NCBI GenBank assembly: GCA_046758705.1
Contig: JBHIAT010000003.1
Location: forward strand, 1-55,702
Source of the DNA: Candidatus Bipolaricaulia bacterium
GTDB lineage: Bacteria; Bipolaricaulota; Bipolaricaulia; JBHIAT01
Reading direction: 5' to 3'
Length of the DNA: 55,702 nucleotides
Shown: piece by piece, positions 34,941 through 46,608 of the stretch
How positions within the stretch are numbered: the stretch's first letter is position 1
How the letters are laid out: each line of letters begins with the position of its first letter
Notes under the pieces: model-generated
What the model was told of the DNA's origin: nothing
What the model saw: the letters and a program-made list of their open reading frames with translations, nothing else
Database searches by the model: none
Program-made: the position numbers and the translations under genes

Positions 34941-35714
34941 GTGCGCATCCGTGTGAAGTTGCTGGCTCCACGTCCGCCTGTTCGCTTGCCACTTAACTAC
35001 AATCATCATCTCACCTCATTGATCTATTGGCTGCTGGAGCGCTCTTCGCGAGACTACGCGACGTTCCTCCACGATGAGGGTTATCGATCAGGTTCCAAGC
35101 GGTTTAAGCTCTTCACCTTTTCGCAACTGCATTTCAAAAGATTCAAGCTCGATCCGCCAGCCATTGTCTCATTGGAACGCGAGATCGAGTGGCAGATCTC
35201 CTCGCCCATCATGGAGTTCGTCGAACATCTGGCGCAGGGACTGTTGAGCCAAGGTGAGGTTCAAATTGCCGGTGTTCGTCTGCAGATTGAGCGAATCGAG
35301 ACGCTTCCGCAGCCTGAGTTTTCGGAGCGAATGAAGTTTATCTGCTTATCGCCCCTGGTGGTATCCCGATCAGTGGAGCGCGGTGGCAAGCGAATGGCTC
35401 ATTACTGGCACTATGATGAACCGGGTCTTTCGGAGGCCGTGCAGGCCAATCTTTGCAAGAAATACGCGCTGATCCACGGAGAACCTTTCCCTTCTTCTGA
35501 TTTGAACTTTGTATTTGATGAAGCGTATATTCAGAGTAAGGATGGCCAGGTATACAAGTTGATCGATTTCAAAGGGACGAAGATCAAAGGAATTCTGGCC
35601 CCATTTGCGGTCGAGGGCAGTCCGGAACTCATCGAAGTCGGCTACGAAGCCGGCTTCGGGGAGAAGAACAGCATGGGGTTCGGGATGGTGGCTTCGATCA
35701 GGTCGGGCGGGTAA
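34941..35714 (+). CDS. cas6: CRISPR repeat endoribonuclease Cas6
   Basis: 257 aa. N-terminal RIRVKLL..LPLNYNHHLTSLIY and the C-terminal glycine-rich loop GFGEKNSMGFGMV. Confidence 0.9.
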   Translation: MRIRVKLLAPRPPVRLPLNYNHHLTSLIYWLLERSSRDYATFLHDEGYRSGSKRFKLFTFSQLHFKRFKLDPPAIVSLEREIEWQISSPIMEFVEHLAQGLLSQGEVQIAGVRLQIERIETLPQPEFSERMKFICLSPLVVSRSVERGGKRMAHYWHYDEPGLSEAVQANLCKKYALIHGEPFPSSDLNFVFDEAYIQSKDGQVYKLIDFKGTKIKGILAPFAVEGSPELIEVGYEAGFGEKNSMGFGMVASIRSGG

Positions 35715-35723
35715 GGAGAGGAC

Positions 35724-36860
35724 ATGGAGATCCGTCTGAGGACGTTGACGCCTCTGTGGACGGGTGGAGTAGATGGCACCTGCGATCGGCTTCACGAAAC
35801 AGGGATCATCGGGAGCCTGCGTTGGTGGTATGAGGCAATCGTGCGGGGGCTGGGCGGAAGTGCGTGTGATCCGACATCACATACATGCACTTTCGACAAG
35901 GAGAGACACACTAAAGCTAAACGACAGGGAAAAAGCGAACGAGATTCGCTGTACGATGCCGGCCTATGCGACGTGTGTCAAGTGTTTGGGACAACGGGAT
36001 GGAAACGGCGGTTTCATATGAAGGTGGTAGACGACAGGACCCGATTTGCTTGGGATTCACCTGACACACTTAACGTTCGCCCTCCGGATCGTAATCGTGG
36101 TTGGTATCTCTTGCCAGGACGGGTTGGCACATTCAACCTGCAAGTTTCAGGCGATGCGCAAACTCTCCGAATACTGGCTTCACTCTTGCTCTTCTTAGAG
36201 CGGTGGGGAAACCTGGGAGCGAAACCACAACTGGGGTATGGTGTGTTTGCACTTAGCAATCGGGATCAGGTAAAAGCGTACGCCAAACATCAGGAGTGGG
36301 AAGTCATGGGAACAGAAGGGCCAAGCGCGAAACCGGAACTTCCTGATCTGCGACGCTTTGGTTTTATCCGCTACCGATTTCAGCCGAGGTCCGCCAACTG
36401 GTGGACTAAAGTCCCGGGTATGGAGCGCCTGCTCGGAAGTCGAAACATGGCATCGGCCTTGCAACGGGTAGCCAAAGGTGCGGGAGAGAGTCCTCCAGCG
36501 GTCCCTCTGACGCCTTCTCTGAAGAATGAGTGGCGCTTTCACCGTTGGAAGGGCTCTCAAGACGACGAAATGCGCATGTTCGGGACTCTGCGATGGAAAC
36601 AACAAGGCGATGAAGGCGTGTCCCTGCGCAGCAAGATAGGGCTGAGCTGGGCCTATCCAAGCAATGATAGTTGGGAGGTTCGAGGCTGGGCCTGGTTGCA
36701 GAAAGCTCACAGTGCTGCCGATGTCTGGACACTATTGCAAGACGAAGGTGGATGGCAACAGGTGATCGGCGTTCAGGGCACACTAGAGAGCAAGCCGAAA
36801 GGGCCTTGGCGTGAGTGGAACACGCAAGAAGTGGCGGCTTTTCTGGAGGAAATCCAATGA
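35724..36860 (+). CDS. cmr1: type III RAMP protein Cmr1-like (Cas7 group)
   Basis: 378 aa. LTPLWTGGVDG...ETGIIGSLRWWYEAIVRGLGG...CDVCQVFGTTGWKRRF, the typical Cmr1 pattern. Confidence 0.8.
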   Translation: MEIRLRTLTPLWTGGVDGTCDRLHETGIIGSLRWWYEAIVRGLGGSACDPTSHTCTFDKERHTKAKRQGKSERDSLYDAGLCDVCQVFGTTGWKRRFHMKVVDDRTRFAWDSPDTLNVRPPDRNRGWYLLPGRVGTFNLQVSGDAQTLRILASLLLFLERWGNLGAKPQLGYGVFALSNRDQVKAYAKHQEWEVMGTEGPSAKPELPDLRRFGFIRYRFQPRSANWWTKVPGMERLLGSRNMASALQRVAKGAGESPPAVPLTPSLKNEWRFHRWKGSQDDEMRMFGTLRWKQQGDEGVSLRSKIGLSWAYPSNDSWEVRGWAWLQKAHSAADVWTLLQDEGGWQQVIGVQGTLESKPKGPWREWNTQEVAAFLEEIQ

Positions 36861-45294: not shown

Positions 45295-45748
45295 CGTCAA
45301 GCTTCCCAATCTTGACCAACTGGCAGCGAAAACGGCACAAGCCATCGTCGAGCAGGCTATCGAAAAGCTGAAGAGCGTCTCCGGCAAAGATCGACCAAAT
45401 CCCGCAGATGCAGTGGACAACTTAGTCACCAAAGCGCTCGGAATCCTGCAAGAGAACGGCGTTTATGCCGGGATGCTCTTTCTCTTCTCCCGCACCAGCC
45501 AAAACGATCAAACGGTGAGCCAGGTGGTTCGAGATCAACTGTGTGAAGAATTGCAAGAGCTCCCTTTTCAATTGCAATGTCCCGAAGAAGGGGAAGCAAA
45601 GCCTGTGCTTGAGTTCTTTGCCAACCAAGTCTGCAATGACATGGACACGCTCTTTATGGTGAAGGAACTCTACGAACAAACGCTTATCTACACGCGCTAC
45701 GGAGCCAAAGCCGCTCAGGTTGACACCGAGGAGAAGTCAGACGAATGA
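45287..45748 (+). CDS. cmr5: type III small subunit Cmr5 (Cas11)
   Basis: 153 aa, helical. ..LVTKALGILQENGVYAGMLFLFSR.. resembles the Cmr5 ..P.mI..NGL...laFl..K motif. Positioned between cmr4 and the last RAMP gene. Confidence 0.65.
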   Translation: MADVKLPNLDQLAAKTAQAIVEQAIEKLKSVSGKDRPNPADAVDNLVTKALGILQENGVYAGMLFLFSRTSQNDQTVSQVVRDQLCEELQELPFQLQCPEEGEAKPVLEFFANQVCNDMDTLFMVKELYEQTLIYTRYGAKAAQVDTEEKSDE

Positions 45749-46608
45749 CCTGGACCGCCTATCGTGTCGTCTTACGTTTAAGAAGCCCGCTGCATATTGG
45801 GCATTTGAAGGTGGGTAACCTGCAACGCACGCGGCACTATGTCCCCGGCAAAACGCTGTGGGGAGCATTGACCGCTCGGCTGACACGCGAACAGGGGCGT
45901 ACGGATTACACAGGCAAAGGGAGCGTCGGCGAGCAGGTGCACAACGAGTTGGCCTTCAGCTACTTCTATCCCGCCATTGACATCGATAAGCCGCTCTATC
46001 CCAACTACACAGACGAAGGTTTGTGCTACGGTCCGGACGAGATCACATCCGACGAATTCGAATGGCGTCTTCTAAATTCGTATGCTGCGACCGCCCTGGC
46101 TGCGCAACGAGCCAGCGCCGAGGAGGGCAGCCTGCACGAGACCGAGTTCATCAGTCCCTACCTCAGAAGCGAGAACAACGAGGAGCCGAAACCCGTTTAC
46201 CTGGTGGGCTACGTCTTTGAGGGTGAGGATTGCAGCCTCGATTGGAAGAAAGCGCTCGATCGCCTCCAGCTGGGCGGGGAGCGCAAGTACGGCTGGGGAC
46301 GGGTTTGTCCAACGGGGCAACCGACCCCGGCAAACAAACTCTTCGGATATGAGCTTGATGAGTTGTCCGGTGAACGACCCGTTGTGACTGTTCAGAAAAA
46401 CGCTCCCCTGTTAGCTCATACAAACGCAAACGATGTCAAAGCGAGCGGCCAGATCGAGCCGTTGATTGGCCGCGAGACCAAGCGTGGATCGGAGTTTGGT
46501 CGCCAGCTCAGTGAAGAACCTCAAATCTGCTGGATTCCCGGATCACATGTTCACGAGCAGACGCGTTTGACCATCCGATGGGATGGGCTCTGGGTCGAGA
46601 CCGGTTAG
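45745..46608 (+). CDS. cmr3: RAMP protein, Cmr3-like (Cas5 group) by position
   Basis: 287 aa. LRLRSPLHIGHLKVGNLQRTRHYVPGKTLWGALTARL RAMP N-terminus and a C-terminal GGERKYGWGRV G-rich loop. The Cas5-group assignment rests on the cmr1-cmr6-cas10-cmr4-cmr5-cmr3 gene order. Confidence 0.55.
   Translation: MTWTAYRVVLRLRSPLHIGHLKVGNLQRTRHYVPGKTLWGALTARLTREQGRTDYTGKGSVGEQVHNELAFSYFYPAIDIDKPLYPNYTDEGLCYGPDEITSDEFEWRLLNSYAATALAAQRASAEEGSLHETEFISPYLRSENNEEPKPVYLVGYVFEGEDCSLDWKKALDRLQLGGERKYGWGRVCPTGQPTPANKLFGYELDELSGERPVVTVQKNAPLLAHTNANDVKASGQIEPLIGRETKRGSEFGRQLSEEPQICWIPGSHVHEQTRLTIRWDGLWVETG

Follow-up and report, generated by a model that had tools for sequence, protein, structure and literature searches.

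Organization of the type III-C operon

The window analysed here is a 55,702-nt stretch of contig JBHIAT010000003.1 from a Candidatus Bipolaricaulia bacterium (GCA_046758705.1), and all positions given below refer to this window. Between positions 34941 and 46608 its plus strand carries 12 consecutive open reading frames (ORFs), whose frames, starts, and stops were re-checked, in the order cas6, cmr1, ATPase, Toprim, cmr6, MNT1, MNT2, a 27-codon ORF, cas10, cmr4, cmr5, and cmr3 (MNT, minimal nucleotidyltransferase). The 12 ORFs together form a single type III-C CRISPR-Cas effector operon, whose reading starts on the side of the array and in which an ATPase-Toprim gene pair occupies the slot between cmr1 and cmr6.

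A sequence-only reading of this DNA had proposed subtype III-C from the core order cas6, cmr1, cmr6, cas10, cmr4, cmr5, and a final repeat-associated mysterious protein (RAMP). This order was recovered, the final RAMP being Cmr3/Cas5, and the assignment to III-C is virtually certain, being borne out by the Csx11/Cas10c matches, the inactivated GGDD motif, the III-C-type Cmr5, and the kept gene order. The cas6 gene (34941-35714) encodes an endoribonuclease matching TIGR01877 with 142 bits and the Pfam family Cas_Cas6_C. The two Cas7-like RAMP proteins encoded by cmr1 (35724-36860; TIGR01894 and PADLOC Cmr1) and cmr6 (38947-40311; PADLOC Cmr6, 256 bits) flank the inserted pair, and Cmr6 carries an N-terminal domain of ~100 aa as well as an acidic helical tail. 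The 3' part of the operon encodes the Cas7 backbone protein Cmr4 (44296-45294; TIGR02580, 120 bits), the Cas11 small subunit Cmr5 (45287-45748; PADLOC Cmr5, 116 bits, and the CAS-III-C effector_SS model, 106 bits), and the Cas5 protein Cmr3 (45745-46608; PADLOC Cmr3, 308 bits). Two junctions have non-cas genes inserted into them; the order cmr1-cmr6-cas10-cmr4-cmr5-cmr3 is otherwise that of plain III-C loci, L024 and L027 among them.

The large subunit encoded by cas10 (41225-44299) belongs to the Csx11/Cas10c family, scoring 497 bits against the TIGR02682 Csx11 model (cut-off 249) over 1006 of its 1007 positions and 627 bits against the PADLOC/CCTyper-derived Cas10c model "CAS-III-C effector_LS". 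At the position of GGDD its palm-2 stretch reads ILAEPRT, so that the cyclase motif is inactivated (GGDD replaced by EPRT), and related Cas10c proteins read the same, with AEPRT instead of GGDD in every one where the stretch was located. The HD motif I in the window is WLHLLGK, that is, HL and not HD, most relatives having WLHD, and motif II is degenerate. Judging from these motifs, both known Cas10 activities, cyclase and HD, look lost in the window copy. A search for related loci with the Cas10 protein alone as query returned no match. Cmr4 retains, in its GRVDNS motif, the Asp that is presumably catalytic. Together with the intact array and cas6, this Asp predicts crRNA-guided (CRISPR RNA-guided) RNA binding and cleavage.

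Apart from cas6 and cmr1, which are separated by 9 nt, the genes of the operon abut or overlap. The overlap is exactly 4 nt for cmr1/ATPase (ATGA at 36857), Toprim/cmr6 (38947), cmr6/MNT1 (40308), MNT2/27-codon ORF (GTGA at 41145), 27-codon ORF/cas10 (41225), cas10/cmr4 (44296), and cmr5/cmr3 (45745); it is 14 nt for MNT1/MNT2 (40636) and 8 nt for cmr4/cmr5 (45287), and the ATPase and Toprim genes adjoin with a gap of 0 nt (TGAATG). When the sequence was re-read, all nine overlaps listed by the sequence-only reading, namely those just given, proved real, and the junction gaps place the accessory genes (ATPase, Toprim-like, two MNTs, and the mini-ORF) within the coupling chain, as had been claimed. 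Exact 4-nt overlaps are thus found at 7 of the 11 junctions of the operon, compared with ~9% genome-wide, a crude figure for same-strand pairs of long ORFs. The operon is unusually tight by this measure, although the adjoining type I-B operon of the same window is similar, having ATGA overlaps too, and tight coupling therefore appears typical of the cas operons in this genome.

Scans for internal signals gave no excess over expectation, either for sigma-70-like promoters in a consensus scan (12 in the operon, with 7.4 +/- 2.5 expected) or for terminator-like hairpins (10, with 13.9 +/- 4.4 expected). A plausible candidate promoter was read from the plus-strand sequence at 34795-34823, TTGATT-17-TATAAG with a TG upstream of the -10 element; it is unlisted by the consensus scan because it lacks the final T that the scan demands. 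A search of the assembly showed the type III system, the ATPase gene, and the Toprim gene to be present once each.

The ATPase and Toprim proteins

The first gene of the pair (36857-38194) encodes an ABC-type ATPase of 445 aa from the Rad50/SMC/OLD/AriA group, which matches Pfam AAA_15 and AAA_21 and, in PADLOC, AriA (65 bits) and AbiLi (64 bits). Its start was assigned to the ATG at 36857 and not to the upstream GTG at 36815, because position 1 of Pfam AAA_15 aligns to residue 15 of the longer ORF. In an alignment of 20 sequences, Walker A (GPNNSGKT) and Walker B (LWEDPE) are invariant. No match to the PDB sequences was obtained by phmmer; a profile search was needed, in which the best match was the OLD nuclease of T. 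scotoductus (TsOLD; E 4.7e-6). The AlphaFold2 model, with a predicted local distance difference test (pLDDT) score of 89, matches the folds of Rad50 (Z 17.0), PtuA (15.0), GajA (12.4), and AriA (12.4), so that the protein is modelled as an ABC head of the Rad50/SMC/PtuA/GajA/AriA type.

The second gene (38195-38950) encodes a protein of 251 aa in which, according to alignment and the AlphaFold2 model (pLDDT 95), a Toprim domain and a helical domain are combined as in the C-terminal region of OLD nucleases. The Toprim signature, E9-G10 and D67xD69, is invariant among 32 aligned sequences, and the protein has ~58 close relatives of ~250 aa without Pfam domains. The closest fold match is PH0156 (2p62; Z 15.1 over 206 aligned residues), followed by the C-terminal Toprim/helical region of B. 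pseudomallei OLD (BpOLD; Z 10.0, 188 residues), TsOLD (Z 8.8, 130 residues), AriB in the PARIS complex (Z 8.3, 180 residues), and GajA (Z 7.8, 152 residues). The protein gave no match to the Pfam family of AriB, DUF4435, and its sole PADLOC match is HEC-01B (E 0.008).

From their models and motifs, the two proteins are best described as a split OLD-family enzyme that is architecturally PARIS-like, and the conservation of motifs and folds predicts an ATP-dependent nuclease activity of the pair. Among longer proteins no fused ATPase-Toprim form was found; the exhaustive hidden Markov model (HMM) search described below yielded one possible truncated fusion, P0178.

Distribution of the pair among III-C loci

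The Toprim family is small: an exhaustive HMM search of 1.84 billion representative proteins retrieved 101 clusters only, nearly all of 235-270 aa, and no relatives were found in the viral contigs and plasmids searched. In species-representative genomes seven loci were found, and in all seven the Toprim gene lies in the arrangement cmr1-ATPase-Toprim-cmr6-...-cas10c-cmr4-cmr5-cmr3, as far as the contig extends; their hosts are Anaerolineae and other Chloroflexota, Geobacteraceae, a gammaproteobacterium, and an uncultured bacterium. In metagenomes the ATPase gene, cmr6, or both adjoin the Toprim gene in all 25 loci, and six more Anaerolineae loci have the pair in the cmr1|cmr6 arrangement. The contexts thus comprise ~35 independent III-C loci with the pair in the cmr1|cmr6 slot and one locus outside III-C, a count that is biased by the sampling of pair-bearing loci via the Toprim family itself. 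Translational coupling is conserved along with the slot: cmr1 and the ATPase gene overlap in 19 of 21 pair-bearing loci, and the Toprim/cmr6 junction is exactly -4 in 19 of 22, tighter than cas10/cmr4 or cmr5/cmr3.

The survey also covered 401 Anaerolineae genomes, sampled evenly. Csx11 scored above the cut-off in 34 genomes and a Toprim relative was present in seven, six of which also have Csx11. Among 20 III-C loci taken from this sample, some of them picked for having a Toprim match, four have the pair, three have MNT-HEPN pairs, and 13 are plain. These counts, with the conserved slot and junctions, indicate that the pair is very probably an integral module of a recurrent III-C variant. The sequence-only reading had considered accessory genes interleaved among the structural subunits to be unusual; this did not hold, since such genes recur in III-C operons, the ATPase-Toprim pair in the ~35 loci and MNT-HEPN pairs in several slots.

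Two individual cases may be mentioned here. In the metagenomic locus L040 (6370-9057), which looks decayed, cmr1-ATPase-Toprim is followed only by the initial 31 residues of cmr6 and by a cas10 fragment of 44 residues. The Anaerolineae genome G219 has two separate cmr1-ATPase-Toprim-cmr6 stretches on different contigs (L084 and L085).

Co-inheritance with Cmr1 and Cmr6

In the Cmr1 tree, all 18 pair-bearing Cmr1 proteins fall into one clade with an SH-like approximate likelihood ratio test (SH-aLRT) support of 99, and none of 500 label shuffles was as low. The Cmr4 tree has pair-bearing and pair-less loci interleaved, at least five changes being forced by well-supported branches, and monophyly of the pair-bearing loci on Cmr4 is rejected by the approximately unbiased (AU) test with p = 2e-33. 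In the 14 complete pair-bearing loci, the Spearman correlation of pairwise identity with that of the ATPase is 0.78 for Cmr1, 0.51 for Cmr6, 0.16 for Cas10, 0.07 for Cmr4, and -0.02 for Cmr3. An HMM built from the first 100 residues of Cmr6 in pair-bearing loci scores 51-141 bits in every such locus, compared with 19-49 bits, in 3 of 23 loci only, where the pair is absent. Within the window, cas1, cas2, cas4, cas10, cmr4, and cmr3 have their nearest relatives in L024, a plain III-C locus of the same phylum, and cmr1, the ATPase gene, and the Toprim gene have theirs in loci of other phyla.

Because of this co-inheritance, the mobile unit appears to consist of the Cmr1 variant, the ATPase, the Toprim protein, and the Cmr6 N-terminal domain, and the trees and profiles point to a single origin of this unit and its shuffling onto different III-C backbones. 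Such a pattern is as expected of a physically interacting set, from which docking of the pair may be proposed. The Cmr1 distinction between loci with and without the pair is at the level of the clade. The C-terminal half of Cmr1 was considered as a pair-specific extra domain, which was unsupported, several pair-less loci aligning to residue 325-345.

Nucleotidyltransferase genes and a HEPN remnant

The second insertion, between cmr6 and cas10, consists of MNT1 (40308-40649; Pfam NTP_transf_2 and Polbeta), an orphan gene of the antitoxin type, a second nucleotidyltransferase gene, MNT2 (40636-41148; NTP_transf_2), and the 27-codon ORF (41145-41228). Both nucleotidyltransferases have an intact GS...DxD motif (GSLARGE..SDLDL in MNT1 and GSVTRGE..SDIDL in MNT2) and weak matches to MntA. 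Orthologues of MNT1, with 52-68% identity, are located between cmr6 and cas10 in L025, L026, L029, L033, L050, L053, and L070 and after cmr3 in L031; a HEPN gene lies directly 3' of the orthologue in L025, L026, L029, L033, L050, and L053, beside it in L070, and not directly after it in L031. The MNT2 orthologue in L026 (49% identity) is likewise followed by a HEPN gene, of 141 aa. This III-C operon of the same phylum (L026, 1754-8332) has three MNT-HEPN pairs, a double insertion at cmr6|cas10 and a single one at cmr5|cmr3, and L078 and L081 have such a pair between cmr1 and cmr6. MNT-HEPN pairs in III-C operons thus recur at cmr1|cmr6, cmr6|cas10, cmr5|cmr3, and after cmr3.

No HEPN gene is present in the operon of the window, apart from a remnant: the 27-codon ORF aligns, with a gap, to the first 10 and the last 17 residues of the second HEPN protein of L026, with a score of 50.4 that none of 1000 shuffles reached. 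Approximately 113 codons were deleted in frame from the window's counterpart of this HEPN gene, and the GTGA and ATGA junctions on its two sides were both preserved. On these alignments, the two MNT genes and the 27-codon ORF are read as leftovers of two MNT-HEPN toxin-antitoxin pairs of the kind that nest in III-C operons, an origin that the sequence-only reading had missed, and further MNT-HEPN pairs are present elsewhere in the genome. A Shine-Dalgarno-like motif, which most other operon genes have, is missing from the 20 nt (41205-41224) that precede cas10, and translation of cas10 may depend on the overlapping 27-codon ORF; the stump was probably retained for passing ribosomes to cas10, since cas10 lacks that motif. 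The mini-ORF cleanly exemplifies how a toxin gene can be lost by deletion while translational coupling is kept.

In the Anaerolineae loci L078 (5165-6685) and L081 (5577-7291), gaps of ~1.5 kb between cmr6 and cas10 match no protein of the window and may hold other inserted genes.

CRISPR array and neighbouring genes

A CRISPR array of 17 identical 30-nt repeats (CTTCTAATCGAACCAAGATGGTATTGAAAC) lies upstream of the operon at 32806-33887. It is read on the strand of the operon, the plus strand, because each repeat ends in the 5'-handle ATTGAAAC. Farther upstream are cas4-cas1-cas2 (30691-32487), preceded by an ORF of 159 aa (30222-30701) that has only the helix-hairpin-helix domains of a family X polymerase (HHH_8 and HHH_5) and that overlaps the start of cas4 with its stop. 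Between the array and cas6, on the minus strand, an ORF at 34168-34563 has a weak match to the BrnT toxin (27.5 bits, cut-off 34.5) and is followed by a small ORF at 33944-34243; the two possibly form a toxin-antitoxin pair, by which the array is set apart from the III-C operon.

Downstream, the stretch at 46768-48830 encodes a tetratricopeptide repeat (TPR) protein that carries DUF6398 and whose N-terminus is sigma-70 region 4-like, and after it a SEC-C/TPR paralogue that is split into two in-frame ORFs (48174-48527 and 48552-48830). The downstream TPR, SEC-C, and SWIM genes were considered as members of the system and dropped, since they are not conserved in related III-C loci. A type I-B module follows on the strand of the operon at 49660-55080, with Cas8b1/Cst1, Cas7/Cst2, Cas5b, and a Cas3 with an HD domain; being without copies of its own, it presumably shares cas1, cas2, cas4, and cas6 with the III-C module.

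Comparison with known systems

The locus shares with subtype III-C, as represented by Csx11 Cas10 and MTH326-type loci, a Csx11/Cas10c large subunit with a dead cyclase, the order cmr1-cmr6-cas10-cmr4-cmr5-cmr3, and a III-C-type Cmr5. It differs from the usual III-C locus in the ATPase-Toprim pair between cmr1 and cmr6, the distinct Cmr1 clade, the extra Cmr6 N-terminal domain, the presence of cas6 and the array directly upstream, and the loss of the HD motif as well. Subtype III-C has been described as having no cyclase sites and no known effectors, with an HD domain in half of the systems (Hoikkala et al. 2024, PMC11229360), and Makarova et al. 2025 (PMC12669027) count it among the subtypes whose cyclase is inactivated. 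A nucleotidyltransferase cluster for III-B/C and a crenarchaeal SMC ATPase, Cas_RecF, are on the list of Shah et al. 2019 (PMC6546367), which, judged by its entries, contains no ATPase-Toprim pair of the present kind. No description of an ATPase-Toprim module in III-C was found in the literature searched, and the recurrent III-C variant with this pair is apparently undescribed.

PARIS, in which the ABC ATPase AriA and the Toprim nuclease AriB represent class 4 of the OLD family, has the same split two-gene order of ATPase and then Toprim, and the likeness extends to the PADLOC AriA score of the ATPase and to the AriA and AriB folds. However, the Toprim protein of the window lacks the DUF4435 match and is structurally closest to PH0156/DUF3226, and the ATPase is nearer to Rad50 and PtuA than to AriA by Z-score. 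PARIS, moreover, stands alone and is triggered by a phage protein, whereas the pair described here lies within a CRISPR effector operon to which it is coupled, and its trigger is presumably crRNA-guided. OLD classes 1-3 and the Gabija protein GajA likewise combine an ABC ATPase with a Toprim/helical catalytic region in which Glu and DxD are conserved, and the fold of the Toprim protein matches BpOLD and TsOLD, the latter being also the best PDB profile match of the ATPase; in the window the two halves are separate polypeptides, in contrast to these enzymes, and there is no helicase partner.

The type III-E Craspase (Cas7-11 with the protease Csx29) is similar in concept, as a type III effector without cyclic oligoadenylate signalling whose attached enzyme is gated by target RNA. 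The proteins themselves are unrelated, a nuclease and an ATPase as opposed to a protease; the effector of the window has several subunits, and its coupling to the pair is inferred. The MNT genes resemble the MNT-HEPN systems (HepT/MntA of type VII) in their GS...DxD sites, their weak MntA matches, and their orthologues in other III-C loci, each accompanied by HEPN, but the window lacks both HEPN genes, one of which survives as the in-frame deletion stump of 27 codons.

Proposed mechanism and alternative explanations

The explanation that we prefer, and to which we give slightly better than an even chance, is a III-C operon with a hard-wired, split OLD-family output arm between cmr1 and cmr6. 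Cas6 would produce the crRNAs, and the Cmr1-Cmr6-Cas10c-Cmr4-Cmr5-Cmr3 complex would bind complementary transcripts, which Cmr4 would cut. Cas10c would be unable to make cyclic oligoadenylate and, in the window genome, would also be without an intact HD site, and for these reasons the damaging output would come from the ATPase-Toprim module. The module would be held on the complex, or gated by it, by way of the dedicated Cmr1 variant and the N-terminal domain of Cmr6, and binding of the target would switch it on in an ATP-dependent manner, with Craspase as an analogy for protein-coupled output and PARIS/OLD for ATPase-gated Toprim nucleases. That the pair supplies a target-gated nuclease output is held at close to, and perhaps a little below, even odds. 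Docking on the complex and activation by target RNA would be parts of this scheme, and the substrate might be DNA or, alternatively, tRNA or other RNA. A role of the pair as compensation for the lost Cas10 HD was rejected, because most Cas10c proteins keep WLHD with or without the pair and the HL of the window is an exception.

Several observations weigh against this explanation. Most other pair-bearing loci keep an intact Cas10c HD motif, contact between the pair and the Cmr complex is inferred indirectly, and the context count carries the sampling bias given above. The correlated divergence with the ATPase declines with gene distance along the operon, so that physical linkage and recombination could yield part of the correlation. 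The Toprim protein remains under the threshold for all Pfam families (DUF3226, 16.8 bits with a cut-off of 27). MNT-HEPN toxin-antitoxin pairs nest in the same slots as the ATPase-Toprim pair, which implies that III-C junctions tolerate selfish insertions. Finally, a distant pair (L083, 8867-10868; 33% identity for the ATPase and 30% for the Toprim protein) stands alone, with no cas genes within ~9 kb, and the module is therefore able to exist without CRISPR. The neighbours of that pair encode an extracytoplasmic function (ECF) sigma factor, a zf-HC2 anti-sigma protein, and GAF histidine kinases.

This stand-alone pair, together with AriA and AbiLi as the best PADLOC matches, the toxin-antitoxin pairs in the same slots, and the patchy presence of the pair on the Cmr4 tree, would suit an autonomous PARIS/AbiL-type abortive-infection module that is nested in III-C operons and senses phage proteins by itself, independently of crRNA. 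We consider such autonomy unlikely: the ~35 contexts inside III-C, always in the cmr1|cmr6 slot, compared with the one outside, the conserved stop/start overlaps with both flanking cmr genes, the co-occurrence of a dedicated Cmr1 clade and a Cmr6 N-terminal domain with the pair, and the lack of relatives in the viral contigs and plasmids searched all argue for integration. The pair might also be a helper, either an ATP-driven factor for assembly or recycling of the complex or a Toprim RNase for trimming the 3' ends of crRNAs or for removing target RNA once it is cleaved. RNA-cutting Toprim enzymes, such as AriB, do exist, the ATPase fold is closest to Rad50/SMC-type heads, which act as clamps, and the HD-intact Cas10c of most pair-bearing loci could supply a DNase activity. 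A helper role is nevertheless decidedly improbable in our estimate, given that, by structure, the Toprim protein is most closely related to defence nucleases and that approximately 13 of the 20 Anaerolineae III-C loci are plain; since most III-C loci manage without the pair, it is not needed for basic assembly or maturation. Decay of the locus, which would then be non-functional as a unit and retain its coupling and order as inherited relics, is suggested by the loss of the Cas10 HD, the deletion of both HEPN partners, one left as the 27-codon stump, and the in-frame TGA in the nearby TPR paralogue. All 11 full-length genes have intact frames with conserved motifs, however, the 17 repeats of the array are identical, and the HEPN deletion is in frame with both junctions preserved, so that decay is very improbable.

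Significance

The interest of the locus lies not in the gene order itself but in a conserved, co-inherited ATPase-nuclease cassette and in the decayed toxin-antitoxin pairs beside it. How III-C systems protect cells is a question for which a coupled ATPase-nuclease with Cmr1 and Cmr6 variants of its own is a concrete candidate for the missing output, and the locus of the window is a natural test case, because its Cas10 is without both HD and GGDD. Tentatively, and with clearly less than even confidence, we propose that a branch of III-C has swapped nucleotide signalling for a docked, ATP-gated Toprim nuclease of the OLD type, triggered by target RNA via the Cmr1 variant and the Cmr6 N-terminal domain. 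If true, the proposal would add a new RNA-guided output arm to type III immunity, and in the window genome, where both Cas10 active sites are gone, the docked nuclease would be the only output arm. RNA gating of the pair, if real, would tie CRISPR to the OLD/PARIS/Gabija family and would add an ATP-dependent programmable nuclease to the RNA-triggered effectors.

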